A program made the translations under genes and the position numbers. The notes under the pieces are model-generated. The model did not search any database. It was given only the letters and a program-made list of their open reading frames with translations, and was not told the DNA's origin. Source: Euglena gracilis (lineage: Eukaryota). Taken from it: a DNA stretch of 64,000 nucleotides. Shown in pieces: positions 1 through 63,820 of the stretch (position 1 is the stretch's first letter; each line of letters opens with the position of its first letter). The DNA is taken from contig CP154954.1 of assembly GCA_039621445.1 (NCBI GenBank), positions 30,446,395-30,510,394 of the forward strand, in the 5' to 3' direction.

Positions 1-398
1 TTGCCACAGGTTACAGAAAAAGGAAATCTAAAAAAAACCGTTCATTGCTTTCTTTTTAATTATTTAATCATGACATAAAAGGCTCCATTTTTTTTTGCAT
101 GATTGGTCAACTTCTCTCGGGAGGTCTCGGGTTTTTTTAATTGGAATTTCATTTTTTTGTTGGTTTAACACTTTTAAGAGGGCAAAGTTCGCCTCCCCAC
201 CTTTGCTCAGGACATTGTGTGCTCTTGACACAGCTAATTGCGCATTCATAAAACGGTTTGCTTTCGCCAAACCGGGATTAGATTGCTTTTTTGTGGCAAG
301 GGCCCCAGTCCTCTGCCTTCGCCGTTGGGTGGTTGCTCTTGACAGATGTGCTTTGTGGAATGAGGTGGGTAATTTTCATCCTTCTTCTCCCTGGCTTT

Positions 399-3300
399 GG
401 CAAGTGGGAAACGGGAGAGATGTTTCAGGATTACCTCTCGGCGATGCGTGAGGTGTGTTTGACCGGAAAACCCAAATGAGAATGATCATCAAACAAGCAA
501 TTGCTTTACAGTAAACATTCGCCTTCCCAAAATGTACTACCCTTGGCCAACACTAACCTTCCTCAAATTGGAATCCTGCCTGGGTTGATTTGGCACCTTT
601 AAGAAGCCTTTTATTGCAGACAAGTTTTTTAATGTGGTTTTGGTTGTGCATCCTCACGTTGACACAGCGATGTCTTGAATCAGCAAAAATTGCTGACACA
701 CCACACTCGGACCATTGCAAAAAAGTCCAACTGACATTGATGAGCAAGAGGAAAAGAAGAAGAAGAAGAAGAAGGGAAGAGAAGAGAAAGAAGAGAAGGA
801 GAAGAGAAGAGAAGAGATAGGAGAAGAGAAGAGAAGAGAAGAGAAGAGATTGCCTTCTGGCCTTTCTCTCGTGAAGAAAGTAATATAATTAATACTACTA
901 ATAATGTTAATATACTATATAATATCATAAATATATCTAATTAATATAATATTATAATTATAATATAATAGTAATATAATCTAATATATAAATATAACAT
1001 ATAATACTAGGAACGTGATATAGATTTCCTAATATCAATACTATATATATATATCTAACTCTATAATCTCAATATTAATGTATATACATATTCTAATAAT
1101 GTTGTATATCTATACTTTAAGTCATAATAATATAATATGTCATTATAAATCCTCTCCTCGCCTCTACTTTCCTCTCCTACCTCTATGTATACTCTCCTCG
1201 CCTCTCCAATAAATTATCCTTAGTAATCCCTCATAGTATAATATAATATAGTATATACCATCCCCTCATACTCTCTAATAATCAGATCACTCTAATATAA
1301 TCATGCTATAATGTAATATAATAGCCTATTTATAATATATGTATAATAGAAGCCCTGTCTGGCCTGAGAGGGCTTTCTTCTTCGACTGGTTCAAACCCCG
1401 CATTCCATTGCACCCCCACTAAATTGACATAGATCTCTTCCCGTCTCCATTTTTTTTTTGCGCATGGTTTGGGCCCACTTCTCTCGGGGGATTTTGGGGA
1501 TTATTTGTGTTATTTTTTATTGGTATTGAATTTATTTTTGTTGGTGTGTAACATTTTAAGGGGGCAAAGGTCACCTCCCCACCATTGCTCAGCACATCGT
1601 GTGCTCTTGGCACAGCTAATTGCACATTCATAAAACGGTTTGCCTTCGCCAAACCACAAACCCACGGCTGTGTTGCTTGTTGCTTGGCCAACCCGCGCTG
1701 ACCCGCCCTCCCCCGGCCCAGGCCTTCGGCGCGGGGCGGGCGGTGGAGTGGACGTTCCTGACGGCGCCCCACGCGGTGGGGGACGCGAAGGGCGGCTGCG
1801 AGTGGTGGGCGCTGCCCCCTGGCGTGCGGTCGTTCCAGGCGACGGAGTTCGGGGGCTTCGAGGAGTCCGCCCGGATGGTGGAGGAGGCGTGGCAGCACCA
1901 GGGCCCAGACGTCCGTGAAAGCCCCCCTTCCCCAATCAACGTGTGCCACCCCAGCGGAGCATCCTCGACAAACGCGTGTCCGCGAGCATGATTGCCCACC
2001 GCTGATTGTGGGATTTTGTTTGCCAGAAGGCACCCCACCAGGCTTGTTTTTTTTTTTACTCGTCAGACCCACCCGCCCCGGGGAAGGGTGGTTGGTTGGG
2101 GTTTGGACCCCCCCTAAGGAGGTCCAAGGGGGAGACCCTGGGTCTTATACCCTGCCCCTCCCCGGGGGGTCCAGCCTGTCAGCACATTCTTTTTTCAGGG
2201 TCCAGCGAAATAAAGTTGGGGCCAGCCCAGCCCAGCGCAGTCGGGTTAGGCCAAAAATTTGTAATTGAGAGTGTTTGTAAAAAGGCGCCAAATTTTAGGG
2301 TTTGGACATTTTGCAGGAGGGAAGAAAACGGCTGAAGGTTGGTTGAAAATCCTTACGCAGCCGGATTTGGGCCTTTTTATGCATGTTTTTGGGTGCCAGC
2401 TGGATCCAGCCCGGCAGATGGCGTCCCCCCCCTGAATCCCACCCCCCTGAGAAGGGGGTGTCAAGGCAGCACCGCACCTCGTTCCAGGCAGCACCGCACC
2501 TCTTTCCAGCTGGCCGGGGTACCCACGGGGGCCTTTAAGTAGTTTACTCACAGAGAGGACGACTTGGTGTCCGCCACACTTCAACATCGTCCATGAGGCA
2601 TTAGGGATCCCTTTTTTTATGCATATGATGGAGCGGACGCCTGCTTCGACCATTTGATGCCGTGCTGGGCTTCTCCCAGGGGGTATGCCTTTTCATCGGC
2701 TGAGTTTTGGATAATCCCCTTCTGACCACACAGTAATTAGCCTAGCCCATCGACATAGCTCATGTTTTGAAATTCGGTGAAAGAATTAGCATCTCAAAGA
2801 CACCAGACCAGGCACCCCAGGCCCATCGGACCCCACCAGGCCTGAATGGGGTTCATACCCTCATCCCCATCCTGGTGTGCAGGAGACCGCCCCACCCCCA
2901 CACTCACCCCTTCCCGTTTCTTTTCAGGGGCCCGATTTTGGATTTTGGTCACAGTTTTCTTTCGCAGTTTTCGGAGCCGAAGGAATTTTTGCTTGCGAAT
3001 TGTCATAGTGGGTGGGGGGGTCAAACCACCCCTCCCCCACAGGCCTCAGCATGCAGCACATCTTCCTTGTCAAAAAAATTTTCGGCGCAAAAGTGCCGGA
3101 CGGGAAAAGTCTGACCATTTGGGGGGTCCAGCATCCTATGGGAGGAGTGCTGTTGCGGTTGGGATAAGCCGAAATCAGGGTTTACTGTAGCACCCCAGCC
3201 CACACACAGAAGGAGGCTCTGCAAAACCTAAAGAAAATGCATGAGTATGGCACGAGTTTTTGATGGGCAACTTCTTTCCATCCTCCCTTTTGTTGCCCCC

Positions 3301-3669
3301 TCAGGCGATGCTCTTGGCAGTCCTGCTTGCTCGTGGGCTGAAGAATCAAAGCGTCGTGAACAGAGTTTTGTATTTAATTGGAGGAGATGCTTATCTTTCT
3401 TTGAAGCGTATAAAGATATTGGCAAAAAAGGTTTCAGATGCCTATCTTTTTAAAATGTTGTTTTATATTTTGGTAGGATTTCAAGACTTTTGTGGTTGGC
3501 TTATTTAGATTGGTATATGTAGCCTGCAATATCAAATTTCCAGACCAGCATCGAAAGTCGTGCTATGTACGCATCCATGTGTGTACGAATGGGTGCATGC
3601 GTGTGCATGTATGTATGTGTGCATGTATGCATGTATGTATGGATGTATGTATTCGTGTATGTATTCGTG

Positions 3670-3703
<34 letters not shown>

Positions 3704-4092
3704 TGTATGTATGTATGTATGTATGTATGTATGTATGTATGTATGTATGTATGCAATGCAATGCAATGCAATGCAATGCAACGCAATGCAACGCAATGCA
3801 ATGCAATGTTATGCAATGCAACGCAATGCAACGCAATGCAATGTAATGTTATGCAATGTAATGTAATGTAATGAAATGTAATGTAATGTAATGTAATGTA
3901 ATGTAATGTAATGCAATGCAATGCAATGCAACGCAATGCAACGCAATGCAATGCAATGTTATGCAATGCAACGCAATGCAACGCAATGCAATGTAATGTT
4001 ATGCAATGTAATGTAATGTAATGTAATGTAATGTAATGTAATGTAATGTAATGTAATGTAATGTAATGTATGTATGTATGTATGTATGTATG

Positions 4093-4126
<34 letters not shown>

Positions 4127-4381
4127 TGTATGTATGTATGTATGTATGTATGTATGTATGTATGTATGTATGTATGTATGCAATGCAATGCAATGCAATG
4201 CAATGCAACGCAATGCAACGCAATGCAATGCAATGTTATGCAATGCAACGCAATGCAACGCAATGCAATGTAATGTTATGCAATGTAATGTAATGTAATG
4301 AAATGAAATGTAATGTAATGTAATGTAATGTAATGTAATGTAATGTATGTATGTATGTATGTATGTATGTATGTATGTATG

Positions 4382-4415
<34 letters not shown>

Positions 4416-6138
4416 TGTATGTATGTATGTATGTATGTATGTATGTATGTATGTATGTATGTATGTATGTATGTATGTATGTGAGTGTATGTATGTGTGT
4501 ATGTACGCATGTGCATATGTATATATGTATGTGTGTGTGCGTGTTCTTAACAATTTATGTGATTCTTTTTTTGGTGGATTGCGTTAATTTGAGTTTCATT
4601 TTATTGCTGGACAGGATTTTTTGACAGAAAATATGTAATTTCCAGTTAAGCAAAACACAACAAAATTGATTTTTGGTTCTGATATCACCTGAGGTTTTTC
4701 CTATCAATGATTTCTATGCAGAGATGAGCCCATGTTTGGCGGTCACTTCAAAGCCCCTTAGGCCGTTTAAAAAATTGGGGGGTTTAGTTGTCCTTTTTTG
4801 CAGCTAAATTTGTTGCTTCCCTGCTCAAATTCGACATTTTTAAAGCTTCTTGGAAGCACATCTGAGGTTCCATTTCGGGTGCGAGAGCCAAAAGTGCCAT
4901 TTTGTGCACTTTTTGGGCAAAAAATTCTCAAAAATGAAAAAAACAATGAAGCAAAAAGCGCCGGAAGGAAAATTTTGACCTTTTTGGGTGGGGTCCATCC
5001 CCCTCCCCCCTGGGTTGGTCCGGACCCCCCTCCGGTTTGGGGAGGGACACCCTCCTTATATCGAACCCTGCCCAATCAAATGTGCAAATAAAGCCCTGGC
5101 ACTAAAACCAACCCGAGCGATGCTGTTTGGATCGGCGTGGCCCAATCCATATGGTGACACGGTGACAGGCGTGGCCGACCTGGGGGATGTGCTGAAGGAA
5201 GGCCAGGGTTGACTGACCTAACCGCTTTGTCCTGCAGACCCCCTTTCTTTTCACCTGTTTTGATGACGATAAACTTGACATGCAAAAAATTCTAAATAAA
5301 CACAATTATTTGTTCTTCCTGAATTGTTCGCCATTCTGTTTTGGCCGGTTGGGATTTGCGTTGGTATTTGTGATGAAATCTGTGTTGTGATTTGTGTTGG
5401 GATTTGTGTTGAAATTTGTGTTGGGATTTGCGTTGGCGTTTATGTTGAAATTTGTGTTGGGATTTGCGTTGGCGTTTATGTTGAAATTTGTGTTGGGATT
5501 TGCGTTGGCGTTTATGTTGAAATTTGTGTTGGGATTTTTTTTTGGGATCTTGTTGGGATCCGAAGGGTTACCCCCATTTAGTACCTTTTCCCAGCTGGTT
5601 GGCTGGACCCCCTTGGGGGTTAACTCATGGTGGGGGGTTAAGAATTTCCCTGTATGGCATTCCCAGGGTCCTTTTTCACACCAGGCTTATAATCGTTGCA
5701 AACAGCTGCCCACCGCACCTTTCTTGCGCGCACTTCGCATTCTCCGTCAGCCATGAGGGCGGTTCCCTGAGGACGCTGCATGTGTACTCCCTGCAGGATC
5801 CGGTATCTCCCAGCCCCGCCCTGTTGGATGCGCGAAGGCATGGCGGTGTGGTGACGACAACAAGCCATTGTGGCAGCAGTGGCTCCCCACAACGCTAACG
5901 CGACGGCGGCTGCGTGCTGGGAGAGTGAGGACATCGTGGAGTATGGGTGCATCCCGCGCCGCCTGTCTTGGGCCCTTTCTCTGCAACGTACCTGCAGGTC
6001 AACCCGGGGGCGATGGCTGCGCGGGTGGCGGACTGCTACGGGCCCGCGGCGGAGCGGTGGGTGCACGACGCCCCCGCCCACATCGTGCCGCAGACGCCCG
6101 CCGATCTCCAGCGCTACATCCAATTCCTGGGCCTGTGA
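399..6138 (+). CDS. FSH1/OVCA2 (DUF341) family serine hydrolase, multi-exon, 5'-partial
   Basis: Exons 399-452, 1722-1902, 2648-2682, 3305-3357, 5104-5200, 5761-5802 and 5998-6138 join in frame: GKWETGEMFQDYLSAMRE-AFGAGRAVEWTFLTAPHAV...WWAL...GPFDAVLGFSQGAMLLAVL...KPTRAMLFGSAW...LRTLHVYSLQDPVNP...VHDAPAHIVP...FLGL*. Nucleophile GFSQG, Asp (QDPV) and His (AHIVP) are in FSH1 order. The first exon is not in the window. Confidence 0.85.
745..850. repeat. (GAA)n/(GAAGA)n purine tract
   Basis: Direct reading. Confidence 0.9.
1420..1660 (+). repeat. Dispersed repeat, copy of ~60-275
   Basis: Shared GGCAAAG.TC.CCTCCCC...GCTAATTGC.CATTCATAAAACGGTTTGC; both copies lie in introns of the FSH1-like gene. 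Confidence 0.8.
1903..2647 (+). other. Nonconventional hairpin intron (FSH1-like gene)
   Basis: No GT-AG. Stem CAGACGTCCG (1906) / CGGACGCCTG (to 2643). Removal gives Q-G-P-F-D. Spacing is 3+4 and the boundary can slide by 1. Confidence 0.8.
3358..5103 (+). other. Nonconventional hairpin intron
   Basis: gaaCAGAGTTTT...AAAGCCCTGgcact, with CAG at +4 and CTG at -8. Removal gives NQSVVKPTRAML. Contains a microsatellite array. Confidence 0.65.
3590..4540. repeat. Compound microsatellite (TATG)n/(AATGC)n/(AATGT)n with higher-order repeat
   Basis: Direct reading; blocks recur in the same order two to three times. Confidence 0.95.
5201..5760 (+). other. Nonconventional hairpin intron
   Basis: ggcCAGGGTTGAC...GTCAGCCATGagggc, with CA at +4/+5 and TG at -7/-6. 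Removal gives LKEGSLRTLH. Confidence 0.75.
5350..5535. repeat. 36-bp tandem repeat (GTTGAAATTTGTGTTGGGATTTGCGTTGGCGTTTAT, about 3.5 copies)
   Basis: Direct reading; lies inside intron 5201-5760. Confidence 0.9.
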
Positions 6139-6545
6139 CGCCCACCGCGACGTGCTCAACCTGTGCCTCTCAGCTGCAGCGTGTGGAGGTGCATAAACAT
6201 CCATTTTTCTGTATATTATGTGTATATTGCGCCTCTTTGCCCCCTCGCACAGCACTTTTCTTCTTCTTTCCGCACTCTTTTTCTGCTGTCTGTTTGCTTT
6301 TATAATTTCCTGCATTTTTTTTTCAGTCCTCGCCTGGATGTGGAAGCCCTGAGCAGGCTTCTGCTTAAGAAATTGTGGTGCCTCCAGGGGGAACTGCAGC
6401 TGGTCCAAAATCAGGGATCTGTTAGGCGTTGGGGAGAAGTTCTTGACCCCCAACCCAAAATGCCCTAAATGCCCATTTTTTGGCTTTTTGGGGGGGAAAA
6501 GCAACCAACAAAAATCTTTAAATGTTTCAGCTCCCCCCCCCAACG

Positions 6546-6890
6546 CAGGGTATTAAGTGGGTTCTGACTGGTTTTTGGCTCCAGCCCCCCCCCCAGTGGG
6601 CGGGGTCGCCAGGAATGGCTGAAAGTGACCACCTGGCGCCAAAAGGCCAATTTTGGGGGTGATTTTCCACCAAAATTCTTTGATTTTTGGCCATTTTTGG
6701 CCGACCGGCCAAAATGACCAACCCCTGCCCCCCCCCCCCCCCCGGGGGAAGGGGGGGACTGGTTTTTGAAAAGTGACTGACAGGTTTTTTTGAAAGTGGA
6801 AAGTGACCCCCCAGGGGAGGTCAGTAAGCAATGGTATGGTTCCGGCCTGGGGGGGAAGACCCTCCTCCTCCCCGTTCACTCAATACCCTG
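6546..6890. mobile_element. hAT-like MITE (TIR CAGGGTATTRAGTG), TSD decayed
   Basis: 14-bp inverted repeat with 1 mismatch; GC-run-rich interior. Confidence 0.6.
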
Positions 6891-7633
6891 CCTCCGAGAG
6901 GGAGTTCTAGCTGGTGAACTGTCTTCAGCTCAGTCCAGTGGACCCCATGGGCCTCGGGCAAAGCTGAGTAAACCTTTTAGAAGGAGCCGAGACAAGGATT
7001 TCAAGTAAGTTTGAAGGAAGCATCAGCAAGCAAGGAACATCAGCAAGCTTGCATGCACACGGAGCTGCACACATTACCACCAATGGCGAAAGAGGGTTTC
7101 ACAAAAGAAAGTGCATGGAACCGTTTCAACAAAAAACAGCAGAACCATTTTGAGTTCAGGAATTTGTGAAAATGAATCATGAAGACCCGATCTCACAACT
7201 GAAAGAGAGAATCTTGCGAACCAAGGCTTTGGTGCATTGGCGCAAGAGCATATTTGAAGGCAGAGCTGACCCCCCTGCCTGTCAGGCATAACTATTTTTG
7301 AAGGCGGAAAATTTCAAAAAAAATTAGGGTTTTAAGGGTTTTTTTTGCGGGCATTTGAGAAATTTTATGAAGCAATAAGGTGTCTATTTTCCAAGGGCGG
7401 TCAAAGAGCTGGTTCTTTTTTTTACTCGAAATTCGAAAAATTTTCCGGGGTGTATTTTTTGCGGATTTTTAAGGGTTTTTCAGGTTTTTAAGGCGCCTTT
7501 AAAATCATGCCTGCTGCCTGTTGGGAGTAAATTCTGGATGACCCCCAACTCGGAGGGGCACAACCTTCGGCTCGGTGCGGCCCCATTGGGAAGGAGGGGG
7601 CTCTTCCCCGCGGTGTTCCCCCCAGGGCCCCCC

Positions 7634-10600
7634 ATGGGCCGCTGCGGCGTCGCAGCGCTCCTGGTGGCCCTCTTTTCAGTGCTCTTCTGCCCCGGGGCCT
7701 CGGGGGCAGCCGTCTGTTTCAGGAAGGCACGCCCCCCCCCCAAGACTTGGGTGGCATGAGAAGGGAGGGGCACAGGCAGGGGATCCCCCTTTCAAGGAGG
7801 GCCAGCTTTTCGGGCTTTGGAGGTTATTGTGGTGCAGTGTACCCCTGGCTCCCCGCACCCAACCAACGGTTAGATTGCCAAACTAAAATTTTCTTTATGT
7901 TTTTACCGCCCGTAGATCGTGTTGTTATGGGTGGTCATGCACACAGACACGCTTTTTCCCCGCCACAGTTATCGGCCCGGTCAGTTTCCTGGATTTAATT
8001 AAAGAAGCAGCCCCCTTTTCAGTCCCTTTGATATCGGTGTCATTTTTCACCCCGGTTTTTCATATTTTTTTTCCACTCTGTGGCGGCGCAGGGTGCTTGA
8101 AGGCCCATTCTCATGGGAAATATGGTGTGTGGCTCCGGCCAGCCATGACCAACCCCCGAAACCATCGAAGGCAGGCACCCCGTAATGCAAGGGTGACACT
8201 CCCCGGCTGGGAAACAGAAGCCTGTTCGGGGGTGGGCGACGACTGCCTGGCGACCCGGCGGGTGGTGGTGTTCGGGGACTCGCTGAGCAGTATCGACGCG
8301 GGGCGGGTGTATTCGGTGGCCCGGAAGAGCAATGGCAAGTTGTGGGCCAGGGAGACCCGGGGGTGGGTGGAGGGCGTCCTTGTGGGTCTGCCAGCGGCCC
8401 GGGGACATGAATGTGTGACGTTTCTGCTCTTCCGCAACATATGTTCCCAAAGGTTTGGATGGTGGTAATGTCGTGTTCACACCGTAAGAACCAGGGCTGC
8501 CTGTGCTGGAGTTTTTTCTACGAATGACCACAACACGCTGAAGACATCTGACTAAAAGTGGAAAATCTGATATTCCCCATCATTTTCTTTTTCCCCCTCG
8601 GAATAGCACTGGAAGGTTCGGTTCCTATGCCCCGAGCCTGAGAAGATTTTTCTGGCAACGTATGACAATGGTGGTCTATTTACTCCTGCTGGTTTACACT
8701 TTCCCGGGTGTCGTCCAAACTTTCTTTTTGAGAAAGAACAATTATCGGTCAAAAAAAAAAAGAGAAAGAGGCATTCCCTCCAATCTTGACCCTTGTTTGT
8801 TCGTGGTAACTTTAAAGAGCAAACAAATAAAATCAATAAAATAAAATAAAGAAAACGCGCTTGAGTTCTGCATCCAGCTCAGGGGTGTGAGACACTTTTT
8901 TGGGGAGGGTTGGGTCGGCCCCCCACCGCTGGGGCGTCGGGTCTCCCTGCCACCGGTGGAGTATGCCGACCTGCCCATGCTGACGGACCTCGCGCTGGCC
9001 GGGGCCACGGCCACCGTGCAGTGCGCAGGGTGGGTCTTCAGGATTTTTATTATTGACGGCCGCCCTTGTGGACCACCCTTGAGGACCGCCCTCGAAAGCC
9101 GGCCAACAGCTGGTGTGGGGCCCGAACGGGGTCGAAAACGAAGGGAAAAAAAAGTGAAAAAAAATCTTTTCTTTTGGATGGGCGATGGCACGAAGATGCG
9201 ATAAACCAACCCTGTTGTCGACCTGCTTTCGCCGAGGAAAGGTCGATTTCCCGCTGCTTTGGAATGTGTTGAAACACGGGTTTCCCTCGTCAAGGATTAC
9301 CCTGGCCGCACGCCTCCGCCGCCATCTCCGCCACGGCGCCGCTCAGGCACAGCCCTTGGGCTGGGACCGACCCCCTCCCCCTCCCTCCGCCGACCCGTTG
9401 GCTGCGGCTTCAGCGGATCATGCCAGGCCCTCCTGCCCGAGAACACGGCCGTGTCCCTGTCAGCTGCTTCAGCACCGCTCTTTTTTTCCTGGTGCCGGGT
9501 CAGTACTGCCCAGCTCTGGGTGAGGTGTCTGCTGGGGCCCCCCCCGCGATGTGCCGTCAGCCGCGCCGTCCCCAACCCCCGCCGAGCCCTCTCCGGCCAG
9601 CTGCAGCAGTACCTGTCTGCCAGCCCCCCGGACTTGAACTCCAGTCACCCCGCCTCTTTCACCGCCTGCCCGGACAGCTGGGGCTGTAACCCTGGCACCT
9701 CGAGGCGGGGGGGGGGGCGAAAAAGTTGGTTCCGGTCACCTGGCACCCTGCCGGGTTATTTGGGGTGATTGCAATTCCTCTCTTCCCATTGGGCATCCCA
9801 CTTCTGGTATTGTGCGCCGGTCTGCCCACAGGTGTGTAATTTGGACCGCCATGGGTTGGATTTGGGCATTTGGTGCCGTGCCACCCAACCACCCAGCCGA
9901 CCGGTCAGGTCGCAGTCCTGGGGGGGGGGTCAGATTTGAAGCCCCACCAAACCCCCCACCCATCCATTGAAAAGAATACGATGAGGCTATGCTCAAGAAT
10001 TTTCAAGGGCTAGGGAATTCTAAGTTGATCGTATAAGCCCCCCCCCCCGGTTTCCATAAGGTGACAAAATTTGCGGTCAGAAAAGGGGGTTTTATTGGAC
10101 AGCGGTCTCCAAAAAAGGCCACATTCCACTCATGGCTTCGAACAGGGGTGGAACAACCAGGGTGTTTGTTGGGCGCGGGGTGTACGCACTCATTCAATTA
10201 GAAGTTCCCCACAACCTCACGGAGGAACAGCCTTGCATTGCATGCGAAATGACATCTTTTACGTCAGTCCATTCATCCCATGGCCTTCAGAATTCCATCC
10301 TGGTCACACTGAAGTCGCTGTCAGTAATGTACAATCCAAAGGCGAGCAACGTTGACGACCTTGCACCTTCCCGACCCTGTCTGGTCCAGGGGTCAACCCT
10401 TATAAGGTCAAGTATTTTTTGGGCCACAATTTTCGCCAAAACAGTGTCCCAAAAGCACATGTCGCTCAATTTTGGATTTGGCGGGGGTCAGGCTTCACTT
10501 GGCCCTGCAACCTTTCGGGAAAGGGTCTTCTCCCCACTAAACTGAGGGGGTGAGTCCAGCGAAAGGCGGGTGCGGCCAGCTGCTTCGTCGTCTTCATCGG

Positions 10601-13600
10601 GCAGAACGACATCAGCTACACCGCGGGGCAGCTGCTCAAGAGCAACTCCGACGCGGCCGTCATCATCGTGAACATCCTCACGGACATCGTGGGGGCGGTG
10701 GCCCGGCTGGCGGCACGGGGGTGTGCGCCGCCCCAACACGCAAACGGCCCACCGCGCCGTGCGAGATGGGCGGCCACCCAACTTCACTGGTTGGCCCATC
10801 TCGCACTTAAGCTTTTTTGGTCGATGTGCGCATTTTCGCACATCGACCAAATTTTTAATTGGGCGCCGGCATAACAAGGGGCGAGAACGAGAGGGAGCAA
10901 GATTGGACAAAATACGGGCGATTTCTCATTTTTGGGCACCGGCTCTCCGGGGAATTGCATGTTTTTTTGCCGTTTTTTTTTTTGAAGTCGGAATGGCGAA
11001 GACCCCCAGACCTATCCCCCCAAAGTGAAAAAAACACCGACAAAAACACCAAAACCCTGGTACTGCAACCCCCCATTTTGTGCGATGCGGCTCTGCTCGC
11101 CGGTTGTTGGCGGCCCTGGCTGGCTCTCTCTGGGGGTTTTGGCGCACTGTTTTGTTTTTGCAAGCCTCGGTCTTGTGTTCTTGGATGTTTGCCGGAGGGC
11201 GGGGAACAAGGATGGGGGGGGTTAGGGTGGGTCTAATCGCGTCACTGGACAGGGACACAGAAAGGAAGGTGTGCCTGGGGAAGGTTGCCTGGGGATTTTG
11301 CAGGTGAAGGGAAAGTGGTTTTAAGGGGAGGGAAGGGTCGCACGTCCTCACCGAACTTACAGTGGGGATATGTCCCGCCAAATTGTGTCGTGATGAAACG
11401 GGAGAGGGTATCACACAAATTTCAATGGAGTGATATATTACAGCCATATTTAGAAAAGGAATAATGTCGATGTGCGCAATTTCGCACATCGACCATTCAA
11501 TGGTTCCCCTGAAGAACGACCATAAACACCACAGAATTCGTTTTGCTGAATGCGGTGCGACAAATACCAATGAGTTTGGGACAGAAGATGGGGTCGCTTT
11601 GTGCAAATGCGCACACCGTCAATGTGTGCGCATTTGCGCAAACCGACCCCGTGTGTATTTGTGAAAGGGATGCGAACAAGTATCATGGCACATAAACAGG
11701 CCTCGCTGCCTTGAGTCTTTTGACACAACAATAGCTGGAAGGGCCTACGACGATTGCCTTGAAAACAGACAGAAATGCAAGGAAAAAACACATGTACCAA
11801 GTACCAGGTCGGAATGAAAAAAGTGGTCGGTTTGCGCAAATGCGCACATGGTCGGCGTGACACATTTTCACAAACCGACCACGGGCATAAAGATGGACGT
11901 CGTCGGAGTGCAAAATGGTGACACCACGATGTGCACACCGACCACGATAGCAAAATTTCGGACAACACATCAAACACGACCCCAGACATCACCAGCAGTG
12001 GCTGCTTCGGTGTGCAATTTCAGCTGCCACACACCTCCACCACGAGCTTTTTTCAGGGCCGATTCTTGCCCAGTGACAGGTCCAGGTCCATTTGGAGACT
12101 GCAGACCTCTAGTAGATGGTCCGCCGCTGGCACGTCGTGGCACACGTGTAACGGCGCCGCTTGGGCAAGGGGTGGCCCTCGAAAACCCCCACCACTTGCC
12201 CCATGGCTTGTGTTTTGCTGCAAAAGTCACATCAGGTGATGATAGGTGGTTGCATTTAAGCATCCACAAGGCTGTCATTAACCCCCCTGGTTCAGCAGCA
12301 GCCATCGAGGTGGCATTGTTATCCCCCACAACCGGGACGGGGGGCGGGCATGCTGCGGGTCGATGGAAACAATAGTAAATGGGAGCGTCTTAAATGTGGC
12401 CACAAAGCTCACTGTTTTGGAGGGAGAGAATATTTAATGTTTACACCTGGTTGAGTTGCGTGAAAGTATTGGGCCTCGGCACCCTGATGTTGTGTACAAA
12501 AACTGGTGTGCTGCATGTTTTCTGAGGGAAAAACGAGGCATCCGTGTGGTAAGAATGGAAAAACAATTCCCGGCCGAGGCATCAGGAAGATTACACATGC
12601 GTAATTTTGCAATTTTGGAAGTCGTTATTTTTGATGAAAGTGTCCAGCAATCACGGGGGGTTGCGCGTCATCAATTCCTCCTGCGCAACTTCCAAACTGA
12701 TGACGTGAAAACGATTGGTTGTGCGGGTTGGAAATAAGACATTGAAACCTGCCTATGGAGCAGACAAACTTTTTCCTGTCATAGAGCGTGTTCTTTACAT
12801 TTCGCTTTACCAAAAACCAGATTTCGTCACCACACTTCAAAAGTTTGTCGTCCACAATGGTCGGTATGTGCAAACGTGCACATCAACTGTTAAGGACGAA
12901 GAGCACACCATAATACGGAGGTAAAACAAAGGTAACCCCCCCAAATATAAAGCCCCCCCAGGGGGTTTGGTTTTGCCGCCTAAATGTAAAGCCCCCCCTG
13001 ACGTGGAGCCAGACGCTGGTGTCATTCAAGAAAAAGTTTGAATTTTTGGGTGGATACAATATTTTCCTCTCCAGAGATGCTGCATTTGGGATAAGAATTG
13101 CACATTTCTGCGAAAAATTGGAGGTACACAACGAAAATATGGCATAAAATTGGTATTTGGCCACAATCGAAGGCCGTTGAAGGTCATAGAGGCCACCCAA
13201 AAAAGTTTGATTCCCCCCCAAATATAAAGCCCCCCCAAATATGAAGCCCTCCCTGAGGGTATTGAAATCCTGTCCAAATGTAAAGCCCCCCCCCCCGGCT
13301 TTATATTTGGTGGGGGGTTTATATTTATTAGCCACCGTTCTTTGTCGCACATTGCAAACAGCACCCCTTCAAAACCCTTGCCCGAACCTTTTCTTCCAGA
13401 GCCAAGAAAAGGCAGGTGTTGTGTTTCATGTGGCAATATAAAAAATGTGGAGGATATTTCACAAATTCCAGCCCCGGATCCCCCCTCCCCCCCTATCCCC
13501 CCCAGAGGGGTCCAGCCAGCAGCTCATTTCCAGCCAGCAGCCTTTTTGCCAGCTGGACCCCCCCCCGGGGGTCCTTAAGAAAACCCCTGTGGGGTCACTA

Positions 13601-15012
13601 TTCGGAAGGTTGGGCGAAACCCGGGGGGACTTCTTGTGGGGGGGGGGGGGGCATCTTTGGGGGGGGGGGGGGCTTCTATTCAGGGGGGTTTATGGCGGGT
13701 TGCACTGCAGCCATTCCAAGATCCGCAAGCTGGGGGGGACGCCAGAAGCAACTATTCAACAATCAACAGGAGCAAAAAAAGAAGGTTAGCTACTAGCGCC
13801 AACGGCCGCAAATGCATTCTGCACAAAGCCATTTGCAAACAACCACATGTGCATCTGTTGCACCCTTCGCAATGGATGCCAAACCACAACGTTTCCTAAA
13901 AAGTTGGAGCAAATCACCACCCATCAAGCAGCTGGGCATGGTGATGGGTTGAAATCATCTGTCTTGTCTGAAGATTTATCGAATGAGATGTTTCCACATA
14001 TTTCTTTCTGCAATTTCTGAGCCCTCCCCCCAATGGTATCTCTCATCTTTTGCCATCGTGTGGGCTGTTCTGGGCTGTTCTGTGACGTGCTGTGGTGTAC
14101 GTTATGTGTTATGTGCCCCTCTGCCAGGCTTCTGCTTAAGGGTTTGCGGTGCCCCCTGGTGGGGGGCTCGACCGCCACAAGTCCAAATTTGGCTAGTGGA
14201 AATCCCAGTGGATCCCTGGGGAGTCCGCTGGCTGGGCTGGCCAGTGGGATTTTCCCACCCTAAGACAGCCAAAAATGCCCAGTTTTAGCTTTTTTTTTTG
14301 GAACCAAGTCAGACAAAAGCCTCATTTAAAGTCCCATTTCCACCTTGACGCGCAGCTCCGGAGGAAATTTTGTCCAGTCGGGGGAGGGGAGCCCAGCCAG
14401 TGGACCTTTCCCAGTATCTAGCAAATAAAATTAAAGTAAATTAATTAAATTGAATTAAATTGAAGATAAACAAAATAGCTAGGCATTTAGAATGAACACA
14501 GGGGACGGTTGTCTCCAGTTGAGGCTTCTGGTTGCATTGCCCCCCCCCCTACAGCGGCCGGTGTTTCTTCGTCTTCGACTTGCCGGACCTCCTGCGGTTC
14601 CCCGCGGTGCGGAACAGCCAGGGCCAAACAGGAATCCTTGGAACCCAAGTGGTGGTCGACCCCCCACCCCCATCCTGGTCGGGGATCCGACCTGCCTCCC
14701 CCCCCCCCCGTCTCCCGGGTCCCATCCCTCACCGAACCTTCTGGTCCTGGGGACAGCTTCCTCACCTACAGCACCGACATCACCACGCTCTCCGACATGT
14801 ACAACGCACTGCTGCGGGAGCAGCTCGCCGCCCTCTCCCTGCCCCGCGGCACCTTCCTGTCCAGCCGGGGCCCCACCCCGGACCCGGCAACCGCCCCCCA
14901 GCCCCCTTGGCCCCGTGTCCGGGGGGCGGGGGGGGGGGGGGGGCTACGGTTCGGGTGGGGCTGCGCCACCGTGGTGGATACGGTCTCCGCCTTCCACACC
15001 GCACTGAATGGG
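7634..15012 (+). CDS. GDSL/SGNH lipase-esterase with signal peptide, multi-exon, 3' end not found
   Basis: Exons 7634-7703, 8230-8344, 8955-9022, 9310-9344, 9559-9642, 10578-10720, 14555-14615, 14755-~14865 and ~14965-~15012. Hydrophobic N-terminus MGRCGVAALLVALFSVLFC; block I VVVFGDSLS; RKSNGKLWVEY; block II LAGATA; block III FIGQND; GGRCFFVFDLPDL; MYNALLREQL; VVDTVSAF. Block V (DxxH) not seen. Confidence 0.85.
7704..8229 (+). other. Nonconventional hairpin intron with residual 8-bp TSD
   Basis: The stem CAGCCGTCTGTTTC / GAAACAGAAGCCTG is flanked by CTCGGGGG (7699-7706) and TTCGGGGG (8225-8232). Confidence 0.8.
8345..8954 (+). other. Nonconventional hairpin intron
   Basis: Perfect 12-bp stem CAGGGAGACCCG / CGGGTCTCCCTG with +4/-8 geometry. 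Removal gives SNGKLWVEY. Confidence 0.88.
9023..9309 (+). other. Nonconventional hairpin intron
   Basis: gcgCAGGGTGGGTCTT / AAGGATTACCCTGgccgc. Removal gives TVQYASAAIS. Confidence 0.7.
9345..9558 (+). other. Intermediate intron (nonconventional CAC/GTG or GC-AG)
   Basis: aggCAC...GTGccgtc. Sliding by 2 nt (9347-9560) gives GC...AG and the same mRNA. Confidence 0.6.
9643..10577 (+). other. Nonconventional hairpin intron
   Basis: agtCACCCCGCCTCTTTC / GAAAGGCGGGTGcggcc. Removal gives DLNSSCFVVFIGQND. Confidence 0.78.
12913..13340. mobile_element. pogo-like MITE with AAATATAAAGCCCCCC repeats
   Basis: Imperfect TIR ACGGWGG; repeated direct and inverted AAAT(A/G)TAAAGCCCC motifs. Confidence 0.5.
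14616..14754 (+). other. Nonconventional hairpin intron with residual 8-bp TSD
   Basis: CAGGGCCAAA / TCTGGTCCTG flanked by GGAACAGC (14611-14618) and GGGACAGC (14750-14757). Confidence 0.85.
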
Positions 15013-15631: not shown

Positions 15632-16068
15632 CAGGGTTTGATATAAGGAGGGCGTACATGGTTTAGGTGGGGGGGGTGTCCCCCCCCCCCCCCCCCCCCC
15701 CTCCTGGCCCGCAGGGGGGGGTCCGGACCCCCCCCACCCCCACCTGCCAGGGGGTCCGGACCGACCCTCGGGGGGGTTCCCGGGACCCCCCCAAAAAGGG
15801 TCAATTTTTTCCTCCGGCGCTTTGCGCCGAAAATTTTTTGCATTTTTGGCACATTTTTGCCCAAAAAGTGCCCAAAATGGCACTTTTGGTCGTTTTGGGG
15901 GGTCAAAAATTTTCGGCCCGGCGCTTCGCGCCAGGCCATTCGGTAACCCAGACCGCGCAACTGTTTAGGTGGGGGGGTGTCTCCCCTCCCCCCGCGCCCC
16001 CCCCCCCTCCTGGCCCGCAGGGGGGGTCCGGACCCCCCCCCCCCCACCTGTCCTTATATCGAACCCTG
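15632..16068. mobile_element. hAT-like MITE family A
   Basis: TIR CAGGGTTYGATATAAGGA; perfect 8-bp TSD CCGTTGGC (15624-15631, 16069-16076). Near-identical to 61176-61564. Related ends at 5070 and ~25604. Confidence 0.92.
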
Positions 16069-21779: not shown

Positions 21780-22011
21780 CAGGGTTTTTTTTGGGTCTGG
21801 CCGAACCCCCACTTCTTAAAACTCCACCTTAAAAAGCACCCTTGGTGGGGCCGCGGCATGCCGCGACCCTGCCAACGGCCGCCCTACCTCCCGTGAATGA
21901 CCACCCAGTCCCCCCGGGACCCTCTGCCCCCGGGGGGCGGGGGGGGGGTCCCAGGGGGTGGGCGGGTGGGGGGGACCCCACCCTCCCCCCTGGTCTTAAA
22001 AAAAACCCCTG
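21780..22011. mobile_element. hAT-like MITE
   Basis: Ends CAGGGTTTTT...AAAAACCCCTG; perfect TSD GTGTAGAT. Confidence 0.88.
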
Positions 22012-25000
22012 GTGTAGATATTCACCATCTTATGCAGACAAAATCCTGGGGAAAGGCAAAATTTGGTGTTTTTGGTCTTCCAAAACATATTTCAAATCCC
22101 TGAGCATCAGCGCCTTCAGCTGGTAAAACAAAATATGCAAATTGCACATCCCGCAATTCACATTAAGAAACGCGAAGGTTTCGAACTAGTTATTCTAACT
22201 CTGCAGCAGATTCATGCCCTTGTCTGTCAAATAGGTGGGTTGCACACCCTGACCATGACGTCCATGGGTTTTGGCGCGTCCGTGCTGCCTGCATTTGCGG
22301 GAGCTGGATACCTGTTTGATGGGGACCAGTTTTCCACCATTGGACAATGTCATGTTTGCACAAATTTATATGAGCTCGGTTTGTGCAAATCTGCGCACAT
22401 CAACGGTTCGACCTCATCCTCTGTCCCCAACTCACGGTCTTTGCCGCACCCTAGCAGCGTGAAACCTAGGGTATTTATGGCTGTTGTTCAGGGGAACCCA
22501 GGAGTGTTTGATGTGCAAAATTGCGTGCACCGACGTGCTTCTTTGTTCACGCCATGGAAGCAATGAATCGTTCCCAGAAAGTTGTGTGATCCCCTCTCCG
22601 GTCGCAGTTCAACAATTTGGCAGAACACAAGCCCCCTGGAAGTTTGGTGGGAGTTCCCGACCAGAGGAATTCGATTTTTTTTTTTTAAGTTTCATGACCC
22701 GGCGGGGGGGGGTCCCGGCCGAGCCCCCCCCCCCCCAGGGGGGTTGGGCTCAGTGGGTACCCCTGCAGGAGGGGATACTTTTGGAGAGTAGAGCCAGAGT
22801 TGATTTGCTTTGCATTTAAAAGAATAAAATCCCTTCCTATGGGGGAGATGGGCACAGCTTACGTCGGGGAAAGATTGGTGCCAATGCACCATTTGAGCAG
22901 TTGCATTTGTCGCCCTTTTGCGCAACTGCACACACTGCGTCCAACGGTTTTTAAAAAACCCAAAGCGGATGGTACCGTGCAGGACTTGGTCTCACCTGCC
23001 CTAACCCGTTCTAGCAATATCGCAAGTTGATGAGGCGGCGATTGGAAGGTTCCCAAACACACATTCCAGGCGTGCTTGCCCCGCATGCTGTGCGGACACC
23101 TGCTCCGGGGCACCCTGAGCCGTCAAAGCCTTTGCATTTGTCTTTACGGTACCAGGGCACCAGACCACCTCTTGATTGCATTGTACGGGTTTGGTGTTGT
23201 ATCCCAAGGTGTTTTTTCTGATTTCTTGGGTGACCGGAAACTTGGTCACCGGCACCCATGCTGTCTGACTTCTCTTTTTGACTTGTCATGTTGGAAAGTT
23301 CATTGCAATGCACTTGGGAAGTTGTCATCAAAAGCTTGTGCCGCCTAACTTGCCTGGGGGGAGATGTTCTTTAACGAAGTGATCTTTCGACCTGGCCCCC
23401 GAAAAAGTTCCTCGCCGGGCCTCGCAGCACCCTGCTCGCAGAATTGCGGTGCAGCGAATGCAGCACTTTATTTTGGAATCCGGAAGCGTTGCGAAGGGTC
23501 ATCTCGCCTCAACCACTGTGCCGTTTCTGGGTTGTAACCTGAGTAGACAGTGGTAGGGGTCCCCAATCTTGTAATCACTTTAGGGATGGCATGGGTTCCA
23601 TTTTCTTTTTCTGCCATCCAAACAAATGAATATTTTGCATATTTACAGTGGTTTTGTATCCGCAAATGAACATTTTTGGATGGTCATTATTTGGAGTAAC
23701 AGGGAAAGGGTTTCATTAAGTAATGAATTCTTGAGCAATGTTTTGGGCCGGCTGATTGGGAGCATGACAATGCCCAATAGGAGCAGTTTGTGCCTGCAAA
23801 TTCGAAACAGCGAGTGCATGGTATGTGCTGCGAGCAGTGAAACTCATGAAGTACAATTGTGTGCCATAACAATTGCATTGCTGGAATATTCAGGCAGATG
23901 GCCACAAAGATGACACGAAGATGGGACACATGGAACGCAGGTCCGCATGCATATTCGAAACGAAGGAATCCCTGCAGTGTTGACGAGATGGCCCTCTGCC
24001 CGTTTTGCTTGTGTCGCTTTGTCCCTTTGCCGCTGCCGCCACGTTGTCCGATGTGTTGCAGGGCCTCAGGTGACTGGAAGTGCCCTTCTCCCCTCTTCCT
24101 GTCCCGCTCTTGTGCTGGCCCGACCTGCCGGGGCTCGGAACTGATGGGGCCCTGCACAGTGCGGCCAGGTTGCCGTGGGGGCTGGAATCATGGAAAGTGG
24201 ACGCGCTTTTGGCACCTTGTTGGGTTCCCCCTGTGTATTAACCCTAGTTGGGCAGGATGGATTATTCTTAAGCGGAGATTTTCAAGCTTTTTTTATTTTA
24301 TTTTTTGAGGTTTTTTTTGTTGTCTCTTCAGGTAATTTGATGTTTTTTTTAAAAAATTAGGGCGGTCCAAGGATTGTCTGGGCATCGACCGTTCAAAATC
24401 AAAAAAAAAGTAGAATTTTTTTTTGAGTTTGGTTGGATAGAGAGCATTCCAGTGATGCCGAAAGCATGTTTTCCCCTGGAGTTGGCCTTTTTCACCGAGA
24501 TTTTGCAATTTCAATTTTGCTGTTGGGGAAAAAAATTTTGCCAGTGATTTTTTGAAGGTTTTGAAGGTTTTTTAAAAAAATTCTAAGGCATTTTGTCAAA
24601 ATTTTTGGGTTTTTGAGGGGTTTCAAAAGGTTTTCTTAAAGATTTTTAAAAGCCTCGAAAATAATCCCCATTGGGCAGCTCTTTGGATTCACTGGCATCC
24701 TTGAGGGGGCAAACTATTAAACAAATATGCACACACAATGCAACTGCAATTTTTTACGCTTCTAGACCCCTCCTTACATGCCCTCTTGGCCCTCCTAAGG
24801 TTGGCCCCCTGGCCTTACCTTCAATCATGGACAGGCCAAGCGCCCCGGGGGGGGGTACCCAACTTCGTCATTGGTTCTTGGCATTCGGCACCCGATGAGC
24901 ATTTTGCCGTTGTGTCTTCTGAAGGGCCCATCCGACCTTGACTGGTGTGCCAAACCCTGGCCTCCTTTCTGCGATTGCAGGCCCAGCGGCCGAAGCGCAT

Positions 25001-30978: not shown

Positions 30979-31074
30979 CAGGCTTCTTTTTAAGTCAGAA
31001 GACCCCCCCCCCGGGGGAGGGGAGGTGGGGGGGTCCGGGCCGGACCCCCCCCGGGGGTCTTAAAAAGAATCCTG
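30979..31074. mobile_element. 96-bp hAT-like MITE
   Basis: TIR CAGGCTTCTTTTTAAG; TSD GTACATAC/GTACCTAC (7/8). Short relative of 59135-59419. Confidence 0.8.
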
Positions 31075-35900: not shown

Positions 35901-36002
35901 GTTTTGAAGTTTTTTTTGTCAGATGGGCCTGTTTTGTGACCCCCTCCCTGGGGGGAGGGGGTCACAAAAAAAAAAGAAGCCTGGTTCGCTTGGTGTATTC
36001 AA

Positions 36003-36037
<35 letters not shown>

Positions 36038-48000: not shown

Positions 48001-48866
48001 GGGGTTCCGACCAGGGCCGACCAGGGCCGACCAGGGCCGACTAGGGCCGACCAGGGCCGACTTGCATGTGGTTGGCCGACCGAAGGGGAATGGATGAAAG
48101 AATTCGGCAGCTTTGCCTCTGGAACAAGCACCTCTGATGATGTTGGGCGATGCAGGGCGATGCTGGGTGATTCTGGATTTTTGGAGACCAGCGGTTGGGT
48201 TCTGATGCGGCGATGCAGGGCGATGCTGGGTGATGCTGGCAGTTTTTTGTATATATTTTGAAGAACTAAACCCATCTTTGGATAATTTTCTCACAAATCT
48301 CCAGTTTTACACCCATTTTGGGCTATTATGGATCAGTTTTTGCTAATTTGGGGGCTATTTATCACTGATTGGGCAAATATTGGGCTAATTTGGGTCAATC
48401 TGAGCATTTTTTATGGCATTTTGGCCATTTTGCGCCCTCTTGGTAATTTTTGGGTCATTTTTCACAATCTTTTGTGGATTTTGTTGGCATTTTTGGGTAA
48501 TTTTTGGTTATTTCAAGCCATTTTAGGTCATTTTGGTTGCTTTTGGGGAGCCAATGGAGGCCTTATGGGGCACTTCCTTTTGATCTTGGCGAGACAATTC
48601 AGAAAATCATTGCATCCCCCCTTCACATTTTTTCTGTGACGGATACCCCCACCTATGGCCGACTATTTGCCGACCAGGGCCGACCAGGGCCGACCAGGGC
48701 CGACCAGGGCCGACCAGGGCCGACCAGAGCACCAAAATGGGAAGTGACCATAGGTGCCTGGTCGGCGAGCACAGGCCCAGAGGCCAATTTCTCAGGCAAG
48801 ACAGGAGTTCGCCTGACCCTCCTATCAAATTAATTTCCAATCAAAAAAAAACCCTGCATATATAAT

Positions 48867-63369: not shown

Positions 63370-63725
63370 AGTGGATGCAGTGGTTGCAGATACTGGACAA
63401 GATGCAGTGGATGCATATGCTGTACAAGATGTAGACACTGGACAAGATGCAGATGCTGGACAAGATGCAGATGCTGGACAAGATGCAGATGCTGGACAAG
63501 ATGCAGATGCTGGACAAGATGCAGATGCTGGACAAGATGCAGATGCTGTACATGATGTAGATGCTGTTCAAGATGCAGATGCTGGACAAGATGCAGACAC
63601 TGGACAAGATGCCGCTGCCGTACAAGATGCAGATGCTGGACAAGATGCACACACCAGACAAGATGCAGTGATTACTGATGCAATGGATGTAGATATTGGA
63701 CAAGATGTAGATGCTGCACAAGATG
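63370..63725 (+). repeat. 18-bp minisatellite GATGCTGGACAAGATGCA (reads DAGQDA)
   Basis: About 19 variant units, in frame with the hATC-like segment. Confidence 0.9.
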
Positions 63726-63820
63726 CGATGTTGAACAAGGTGCAGACATTGGACAATTGGGTGAGCGCATTTGATGTCAATATTTCAACATTATGGGCCG
63801 ATCACATGTTTGTTTGCTTT

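Follow-up and report, generated by a model that had tools for sequence, protein, structure and literature searches.

The lipase locus and its splice junctions

The window analysed here is a 64-kb stretch of Euglena nuclear DNA, and its exons agree with proteins from the E. gracilis transcriptome at ~95-98% identity. A GDSL/SGNH lipase gene with a signal peptide and GDSL and GxND blocks lies at 7634-15012 on the forward strand, as do all introns described below. Exons 1-5 of the gene are at 7634-7703, 8230-8344, 8955-9022, 9310-9329 and 9574-9642, and exons 6-9 at 10578-10720, 14555-14615, 14755-14860..62 and 14969..71-15012. The gene matches residues 1-232 of EukProt EG_transcript_10818 (P0121, PF00657); residues 233-330 of this transcript were looked for in the window and not found. 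An FSH1-type hydrolase gene is located upstream, and the window also contains a quinone-oxidoreductase gene. The best explanation of the interval, which we consider probable as a whole, is a Euglena GDSL-lipase gene broken up mostly by typical euglenid nonconventional introns.

Junctions were checked by alignment to transcriptome-derived proteins (P0001, P0121), so that the evidence is at the protein level. Nine introns lacking a usable GT-AG pair had been listed in the initial annotation. Six of them were matched exactly by transcript proteins (7704-8229, 8345-8954, 9023-9309, 9643-10577, 14616-14754 and 35526-38513), and for two (3358-5103 and 5201-5760) only the length fits a homologue of 72-76% identity. 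The remaining one, 9345-9558, was contradicted, since the transcript protein reads AAIS|NPRR and places the intron at 9328..9330-9571..9573 instead. The unsupported intron is nested within this transcript-supported one (G4, 9330-9573), which replaces it; the start of G4 slides over 9328-9330, its stem is ACGGCGC/GCGCCGT and its spacer sum is 7. At least four non-GT-AG introns had been missed (1903-2647, 14861-14968, 44986-45303 and 45354-45701), with spacer sums of 5-9, not 8. A further non-GT-AG intron near 49593-50837 resisted mapping.

The first intron of the lipase gene, G1 (7704-8229), has a protein-supported junction whose start slides over 7699-7707. Its element (7707-8224) has CAG...CTG tips and a terminal inverted repeat (TIR) matching at 12/14 positions, and the flanking 8-mers, CTCGGGGG (7699-7706) and TTCGGGGG (8225-8232), match at 7/8. 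G2 (8345-8954) reads GGC-CAGGGAGACCCG...CGGGTCTCCCTG-CCACC, with a TIR of 12/14 and flanks matching at 2/8. G3 (9023-9309) reads GCG-CAGGGT...ACCCTG-GCCGC, with flanks at 5/8 and a single junction solution, and G5 (9643-10577) reads AGT-CACCCCGCC...GGCGGGTG-CGGCC, with flanks at 4/8. G7 (14616-14754), AGC-CAGGGCC...GGTCCTG-GGGAC, is flanked by GGAACAGC and GGGACAGC, again a 7/8 match. The last intron, G8 (14861-14968), was absent from the initial annotation; it has CAG...CTG tips, a spacer sum of 6 and a start that slides over 14861-14863.

Outside the lipase gene, the confirmed intron Q1 of the quinone-oxidoreductase gene (35526-38513) reads AGT-CAGAGG...ACGCTG-AGGGC, with flanks at 3/8. For intron U4 of the hydrolase gene (3358-5103), supported by length only, the homologue favours 3353-5098 by two residues, and it is closer to the intronic copy of the repeat than to the exonic copy. 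Intron U5 (5201-5760) reads GGC-CAGGGTTGAC...CAGCCATG-AGGGC, with flanks at 5/8 and length-only support. Three of the newly added introns also lie here: U2 (1903-2647), homologue-mapped, with the TIR CAGACGTCCG/CGGACGCCTG and a spacer sum of 7; Q6 (44986-45303), with CGG...CCG tips and spacers of 4+5; and Q7 (45354-45701), which starts with CAG, has no CTG at -8..-6, and carries an ACCGG repeat at the junction with a spacer sum of 6.

Splice geometry of the nonconventional introns

A recount in the sequence bore out the end motif given by the initial annotation: all nine listed introns carry CAG/CAC at +4 and a CTG/GTG/ATG whose last base is at -6. A purine opens the downstream exon in all nine. 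Intron positions +1..+3 match the first three nucleotides of the next exon at two or more of three positions in each of them (20/27 overall), as had also been claimed. A matched GT/GC...AG pair is absent from every junction solution of the six confirmed introns (G1, G2, G3, G5, G7 and Q1). These genes also contain eight clean GT-AG introns; the lipase intron at 10721-14554, filled with repeats, is a conventional GT-AG intron.

The splicing code of nonconventional introns has been given as 5'-N3CDG...CH'GN5-6|R (Nomura et al. 2025). The CDG/CH'G code with 3-nt and 5-6-nt spacers fits five of the six confirmed introns, all CAG...CTG; the sixth, G5, is CAC...GTG. Among the 13 non-GT-AG introns that were mapped, five, or about a third, are off the 3+5 geometry, with spacer sums of 5-9 (1903-2647, 9330-9573, 14861-14968, 44986-45303 and 45354-45701). 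Minimum-energy folding placed the +4/-6 helix in G2, G3 and G7; the global fold of G1 and that of G5, both long introns, lacked it.

According to PMC12501133, experiments define the code as a cut 3 nt upstream of CAG and another 5 nt downstream of CTG. Both spacers (3 nt and 5 nt), the CAG/CTG motifs, the stem and the purine are described there as necessary, and as sufficient in synthetic 50-bp introns. The same paper reports that introns with altered flanks, synthetic or transplanted, still splice normally and that the upstream exon tolerates every substitution of its final base, so that splicing does not need a flanking repeat. Under the 3+5 code, an element with CAG...CTG tips and an 8-bp target-site duplication (TSD) would be removed with exactly one copy of the TSD.

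Direct repeats at the intron flanks

The flanking 8-mer match of 42/72 reported earlier was reproduced, as 4+5+7+2+5+5+4+7+3 over the nine listed introns. When the k-mer before CAG was compared with the k-mer after CTG for k = 4-12 in these nine window introns, the anticipated peak at k = 8 was found, with an identity of 0.58 compared to 0.17-0.39 at other k; since the splice sites are fixed, k = 8 is the sole register able to show junction microhomology, and the peak therefore shows a repeat filling the 8 positions and does not measure the length of the TSD independently. The cross-pair control identity was 0.32 (binomial p = 3.6e-6). Own pairs matched at 37/64 positions in the eight fitting introns, a score reached by 0/14,833 derangements, and at 28/48 in the six transcript-confirmed introns, reached by 0/265. 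Conventional introns of the same genes showed the consensus G|G only, at a level equal to that of their cross-pairs. The flanking 8-mers of each intron form a direct repeat that has decayed and is particular to that pair, not a shared consensus.

The 7/8 repeats of G1 and G7 adjoin the CAG and CTG tips exactly. With these two introns removed, 14 of 32 positions matched in the confirmed set, compared to a rate of 0.31 in cross-pairs (p = 0.09). The signal is thus carried mostly by the two 7/8 introns and is weak without them.

Free-standing TIR elements in the window

The initial annotation had pointed to MITEs with CAG...CTG ends and 8-bp TSDs in the window, and an unbiased TIR scan confirmed them. 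The scan returned 40 CAG...CTG candidates, where 30 block shuffles averaged 8.1. At k = 8, six candidates had a TSD with no more than one mismatch, compared to 0.0 in the shuffles; every other k gave 0-2. Four of the six are perfect and two are 7/8, one of the latter being the intron at 7704-8229.

Elements are given here without a strand. MITE family A is represented at 15632-16068, with the TIR CAGGGTTTGATATAAGGA and the perfect 8-bp TSD CCGTTGGC, and by a second copy at 61176-61564 with the perfect 8-bp TSD GCCTGAGC. A nested family A end and a microsatellite were observed within 3358-5103. The other two perfect 8-bp TSDs belong to a CAGGG...CCCTG element at 21780-22011 (GTGTAGAT) and to a CAGGCACCTA...TAGGTGCCTG element at 47907-48760, within an intron of the oxidoreductase gene (GTCGGCGA). 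MITE family B includes a 96-bp element at 30979-31074 (CAGGCTTCTTTTTAAG; TSD 7/8) and a second copy at 59135-59419 (TSD 6/8). The TIRs open with CAGGG, CAGGC or CAGAG, and 12-14 of their 14 positions match.

Comparison of 11-13 introns with nine in-window MITE copies gave no collinear pair, and similarity was limited to nested fragments and poly-C/G matches; this comparison spans 64 kb and has no power, the genome of the related E. agilis being reported at 1.4-1.5 Gb. No repeated intron copies were found within the window, a metagenome scan returned chance matches only, and no transposase domain was detected in the ten long ORFs of the window that were tested.

Origin of the introns

Judging from the layout of the sequence, the introns probably descend from hAT-like insertions, under a splice rule that would remove one 8-bp duplication together with the element. 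In the ancestral step, hAT-like non-autonomous DNA transposons would insert into exons. Hairpin introns of this class are cut 3 nt before the 5' CAG and 5 nt after the 3' CTG, by a machinery other than the GT-AG spliceosome, and this geometry would take the element plus 3+5 = 8 nt, that is, one copy of the duplication. An insertion with a purine at position 6 of the duplication would leave a scarless mRNA in either orientation, and once spliced out it could be retained as an intron and decay over time. The hAT assignment is putative and was inferred solely from the 8-bp length of the duplication and the CAG termini. That hAT-type MITE insertions, now fossil, gave rise to most nonconventional introns of euglenids, and that the splicing machinery of these introns is in effect a precise RNA-level excision tuned to the transposon footprint, is a more tentative proposal, to which we would give somewhat less than an even chance. 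The interpretation in the initial annotation stands in part: the own-pair 8-nt repeat and the nearby elements with the same tips and 8-bp TSDs speak for it, while a third of the introns are off the geometry and the signal is weak without two of them.

The insertions could also come from TIR transposons of another or undescribed euglenozoan superfamily with 8-bp duplications, with 3+5 still equal to one TSD. An 8-bp TSD, CAG-type termini and short TIRs are the classical hAT combination, which makes this alternative unlikely, although several observations agree with it. The hAT target consensus has T at position 2 and A at position 7, a preference that the TSDs of the window do not show consistently; two of five MITE families begin with CAGGC and not with the YARNG pattern; and no transposase was found among the long ORFs tested in the window. 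Splice-signal preferences (pyrimidine|purine at the junctions and a purine at the exon start), together with chance in two introns, could produce flank similarity that is neutral as to origin. Cross-pair identity is indeed already 0.43-0.51 at 2/8 positions, and leaving out the two best introns takes the excess below significance. However, own pairs beat every derangement, and the normal splicing of introns with altered flanks (PMC12501133) shows that the repeat is unnecessary for splicing; we consider this explanation very unlikely.

Finally, the repeats may be footprints of intron gain through staggered double-strand break repair, the 8-nt fit to splicing being coincidental. Milanowski et al. 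2016 interpret the eight-nucleotide direct repeats of a recently gained E. agilis gapC intron in this way (PMC4770533), and other registers do occur here, such as ACCGG at 45354-45701 with its spacer sum of 6. Break repair would nevertheless give variable repeat lengths without inverted terminal repeats, whereas the repeats here adjoin the tips of CAG...CTG TIRs, and free-standing elements with the same tips have duplications of exactly 8 bp, four of them perfect compared to 0.0 expected. This route is thus quite unlikely, and descent from hAT-like insertions is the reading that we prefer.

Several pieces of this picture are already published, namely a proposed MITE origin, TIR- and TSD-like ends, the 3+5 code and, in an intron gained recently, an 8-nt repeat (PMC11282704, PMC12501133 and PMC4770533). 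The link between 3+5 and one 8-bp hAT duplication was not found in print; in a term search of papers on euglenid nonconventional introns, hAT was unnamed and the equality of 3+5 with one 8-bp duplication unstated. The origins of these introns are said to remain unclear (Nomura et al. 2025). To these pieces the window contributes the arithmetic link, along with a small data set of local scope, and not a new kind of element. If the 8 nt beyond the hairpin are one target duplication, intron origin and the 3/5 cut geometry share one explanation. The published E. agilis and E. gracilis assemblies carry annotated junctions by the hundreds of thousands, and a knock-in splicing assay exists. The system would also be a non-spliceosomal counterpart of introners, in which RNA processing by the host renders a family of DNA transposons harmless and thereby allows its spread through coding regions on a large scale. 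Under the more tentative proposal, exonic insertions of CAG...CTG elements would be neutral from the start in either orientation, which would account for the ~70% of Euglena introns that are nonconventional.

Comparison with known systems

MITEs of the hAT superfamily have 8-bp TSDs and short TIRs starting with CAG or TAG. The elements at 15632-16068, 61176-61564, 21780-22011 and 47907-48760 share an exact 8-bp TSD and CAG...CTG tips, and the introns at 7704-8229 and 14616-14754 are laid out alike, their repeats matching at 7/8. Unlike hAT families, no transposase or autonomous copy was seen in the window, where the introns are single-copy. Maize Ds, a hAT element, is reportedly spliced from transcripts, in work attributed to Giroux et al. 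1994. It shares the RNA-level removal of an exon-borne hAT-type element, but that removal is imprecise, uses the ordinary spliceosome and cryptic sites, and does not take exactly one copy of the duplication. The introners of Micromonas and Aureococcus are said, on the account of Huff et al. 2016, to be exon-inserted DNA transposons spliced out with part of the target duplication. They likewise restore the coding sequence through RNA removal of the element and part of the duplication. In contrast to the window introns, which rely on a hairpin, lack GT-AG ends and have no repeated copies within the 64 kb, introners are spliceosomal, with GT-AG ends and many near-identical copies.

Introns of Amoebophrya have non-canonical ends and inverted and direct repeats, and a MITE-like origin was proposed for them (Farhat et al. 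2021, PMC7789003); their direct repeats are 3-5 nt according to PMC11282704, unlike the 8 nt here, and the lineage is another one. The MITE-derived introns of Fritillaria, as described in PMC11282704, also have non-canonical ends, TIRs and short direct repeats, in another lineage, with other repeat lengths and removal presumed to be spliceosomal. The ends of euglenid nonconventional introns are themselves termed TIR and 'TSD-like' in this 2024 review (PMC11282704). Unlike introners, euglenid nonconventional introns are reportedly released as circles and not via the GT-AG spliceosome. The window introns share with them the lack of GT-AG, CAG at +4 and CTG ending at -6 (Milanowski 2014, 2016; Nomura 2025), together with the terminal stem, the purine at the exon start and junctions that slide because of direct repeats. 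CAC...GTG in G5 falls outside CDG/CH'G, and five more introns deviate from the euglenid code in spacer sum. Most of the introns here are plain members of the euglenid nonconventional class, not different in kind.

Splice-site geometry of the listed introns

The initial annotation described nine introns with a terminal stem whose tips lie 3 nt inside the 5' splice site and 5 nt inside the 3' splice site (the 3+5 geometry). At all nine (3358-5103, 5201-5760, 7704-8229, 8345-8954, 9023-9309, 9345-9558, 9643-10577, 14616-14754 and 35526-38513), the sequence N3-CAG/CAC ... CTG/GTG/ATG-N5 was indeed read. When the 8-mer formed by exon -5..-1 and intron +1..+3 was compared with that formed by intron -5..-1 and exon +1..+3, the reported 42/72 matches were reproduced. 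Intron positions +1..+3 agreed with the first three bases of the next exon at two or more of three positions in every intron (20/27 in total), as had also been claimed. The identity between the k-mers preceding CAG and following CTG of the nine introns was 0.58 at k=8 and 0.11-0.39 at the other values of k from 2 to 15, while flanks cross-paired between different introns gave 0.32 at k=8 (binomial p 3.6e-6). With splice sites and 3+5 geometry given, junction microhomology can appear only at k=8, and this peak is therefore not an independent measure of the length of a target-site duplication (TSD). It does show the presence of a repeat that occupies all eight positions as far as the tips of the terminal inverted repeats (TIRs).

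Mapping of the junctions on transcript-derived proteins

EukProt transcriptome-derived proteins were searched with single window exons as queries. Window exons matched EG_transcript_24767 (P0001), a quinone oxidoreductase, and EG_transcript_10818 (P0121), a GDSL lipase with PF00657. The identity of about 95-98% to both proteins indicates that the window DNA belongs to Euglena gracilis or to an organism very closely related to it, and that the two proteins derive from a non-identical allele, paralogue or strain. For the upstream gene, no same-species transcript protein was found in EukProt, only an FSH1-type hydrolase homologue of 72-76% identity from another transcriptome (P0122). Residues 233-330 of P0121, which include the C-terminal catalytic block, had no match in the entire window (15013-64000 included), which may mean that the GDSL lipase copy is a truncated gene or a pseudogene, or that an assembly problem has interrupted it.

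Junctions were placed where the spliced translation reproduced the transcript-derived proteins, and this confirmed six of the nine listed introns (7704-8229, 8345-8954, 9023-9309, 9643-10577, 14616-14754 and 35526-38513), each with its expected equivalent slid positions (for 9023-9309, a single junction solution). The two introns of the upstream gene, 3358-5103 and 5201-5760, agreed with the homologue in length alone, and 3353-5098 fitted it two residues better than 3358-5103. The transcript protein contradicts the remaining listed intron, 9345-9558: its reading ...AAIS|NPRR... places the intron at 9328..9330-9571..9573, and it lacks ten residues (ATAPLSRAVP) that 9345-9558, nested in 9330-9573, would retain. 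The 9345-9558 version has no support; the difference could be allelic or could reflect alternative nested hairpin splicing.

The same mapping yielded eight clean GT-AG introns and four unlisted non-GT-AG introns (1903-2647, 14861-14968, 44986-45303 and 45354-45701). In these four and in 9330-9573, that is, in 5 of the 13 mapped non-GT-AG introns, the spacers sum to values within 5-9 other than 8. The listed set was therefore in effect selected for fit. The proportion of misfits agrees with Nomura et al. 2025 (PMC12501133), who give 61.2% as the share of E. agilis nonconventional introns that follow the splicing code. Decay, an origin from other elements, or different processing may account for introns with other spacer sums. 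Introns above 500 nt showed no terminal helix in their global MFE folds, and a simple helix-finder was unreliable for defining TIR tips objectively.

Two further features of the oxidoreductase gene were observed. Its conventional introns (starting at 38567, 39112, 43438, 45848 and 46497) begin with GTGTG or GTGTC in nearly all cases, an unusually uniform 5' splice-site consensus. Its last intron, at about 49593-50837, is seemingly non-GT-AG, with G/C-rich palindromic ends CTGGGGGCCCCCC ... GGGGCCCCCC that carry no CAG/CTG; distant homologues gave no junction placement for it.

The flank repeat compared with consensus and chance

Own-pairs (both flanks of one intron) were compared with derangements, in which flanks come from different introns. 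For the eight fitting introns, own-pairs matched at 37/64 positions, a value above the maximum of 33 (mean 19.6) among 14,833 derangements. The six confirmed introns gave 28/48, equalled by none of 265 derangements (maximum 25). The eight conventional introns matched at positions -1 and 0 only, at the same rate as their own cross-pairs, and these matches are consensus only. The own-pair signal of the nonconventional introns leans on two of them with 7/8 repeats, 7704-8229 (CTCGGGGG/TTCGGGGG) and 14616-14754 (GGAACAGC/GGGACAGC). In the other four confirmed introns, 14/32 positions matched, where cross-pairs gave a rate of 0.31 (p 0.09).

Inverted-repeat elements in the window

The TIR scan considered every CAG...CTG pair 60-4000 nt apart with terminal complementarity of at least 12/14. 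It returned 40 candidates, whereas 30 block shuffles averaged 8.1. Flanking duplications with at most one mismatch numbered six at k=8 and 0-2 at each other k from 4 to 12, and averaged 0.0 at k=8 in the shuffles. The claim that MITEs in the window have CAG...CTG ends and 8-bp TSDs was borne out: perfect TSDs of exactly 8 bp flank both copies of MITE family A (15632-16068 and 61176-61564) and the elements at 21780-22011 and 47907-48760, and a 7/8 TSD flanks 30979-31074, a copy of family B. The sixth element is intron 7704-8229. At least one intron is therefore indistinguishable in layout from the MITEs of the window. Intron 8345-8954 was also among the 40 candidates.

In BLAST searches against the window and nine MITE copies, a 64-kb sample too small to decide the matter, none of the introns matched a MITE family of the window from end to end. 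Intron 3358-5103 contained a nested family A fragment and 35526-38513 one repeat; the other matches were nested, low-complexity or poly-C/G. The family A fragment (5051-5070 and 4888-5031) includes the right TIR of the family and sits inside intron 3358-5103 at its 3' end. Read inward from its 3' end (8209-8224), intron 7704-8229 begins with 10 nt (CAGGCTTCTG) identical to the family B TIR, a match too short to call kinship. No transposase domain was found by Pfam in the 10 long ORFs of the window. A metagenome scan with the family A TIR gave 17 loci, all attributable to chance, with similarity confined to the pattern itself.

Other repeats were noted. Solo ends of family B lie at 6354-6369 and 14125-14140. 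In the region 56794-59995, the terminus CAGGTGCGCATTC occurs at 56794, 57541, 58906 and 59587, and its inverted counterparts end at 59558 and 59995. The arrangement suggests a further CAG-tipped element in clustered copies, nested or in tandem, for which 8-bp TSDs are not clear. A palindromic motif, TGTGCGCA(N2-6)TGCGCACA, flanked by GTCGA/TCGAC, has at least seven copies across 10825-11848 and 22380-22934, the majority within the large conventional intron 10721-14554, and may be a separate small repeat family. At 3607-4536, intron 3358-5103 contains a compound microsatellite of about 900 bp, (ATGT)n/(ATGTAATGCA)n, whose higher-order unit measures 277 bp. Near the end of the window, at 63410-63746, about 18 copies of an 18-bp unit, GATGCAGATGCTGGACAA, form a tandem repeat. 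Overall, the DNA is eukaryotic and GC-patchy, with poly-C/G tracts, microsatellites and numerous short inverted-repeat elements; Rfam and tRNA scans of the window found nothing.

Origin of the introns and relation to published work

The cut positions and their sufficiency were established by Nomura et al. 2025 (PMC12501133). Their knock-in experiments showed that CAG, CTG, the 3-nt 5' spacer, the stem and the exon-start purine are all required, that a 3' spacer of 5 nt is required with 6 tolerated, and that the same features suffice in synthetic 50-bp introns. To this the window adds the geometry, the own-pair repeat, and co-resident elements with the same tips and 8-bp TSDs. A CAG...CTG-tipped element inserted with an 8-bp duplication would create N3-CAG...CTG-N5 in either orientation, and a purine at duplication position 6 would complete the published code. 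Removal would rejoin duplication positions 1-5 with 6-8 and so return the mRNA to its state before the insertion. Insertions of this kind would be close to neutral and would decay later, which matches the two young-looking introns (7/8) and the older ones (2-5/8).

The initial observation was thus largely real, yet selected and partly mis-mapped. Its reading of the introns as hAT-MITE insertions is favored by the geometry, the own-pair repeat and the co-resident elements; against it, none of the introns matched a MITE family over its full length within this 64-kb sample, which is too small to decide the point. Transposon insertion is plausible, consistent with independent published data and only partly supported here, and the assignment to hAT is unproven. 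A different origin was proposed for one published intron. In E. agilis gapC, Milanowski et al. 2016 (PMC4770533) describe an intron of recent gain whose direct repeats, at eight nucleotides, exceed those of other introns in length, and they interpret the repeat as double-strand-break repair.

Full-text literature searches found no paper combining Euglena, hAT, TSD and intron, and 'nonconventional introns' with hAT returned an unrelated barley paper only. A term search of the accessible text of Nomura et al. 2025 (PMC12501133) did not find the words hAT, duplication or TSD; that text suggests a MITE-like source, and reports junction direct repeats in 84.4% of introns, with 'slidable' ones set aside. 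In the freely searchable main texts of papers, no passage was found that equates 3+5 with one 8-bp hAT-type duplication and thus makes splicing scarless. A MITE origin was proposed earlier by Milanowski et al. 2014, and a 2024 review (PMC11282704) names the intron ends TIR and the repeats 'TSD-like'. With the MITE origin, the TSD-like repeats, the 8-nt gapC repeat and the 3+5 code in print, all ingredients are thus already published; the 3+5 link itself was not found there. The introns are typical representatives of an already described class, to which the concept of 3+5 as one duplication adds a modest but testable refinement.
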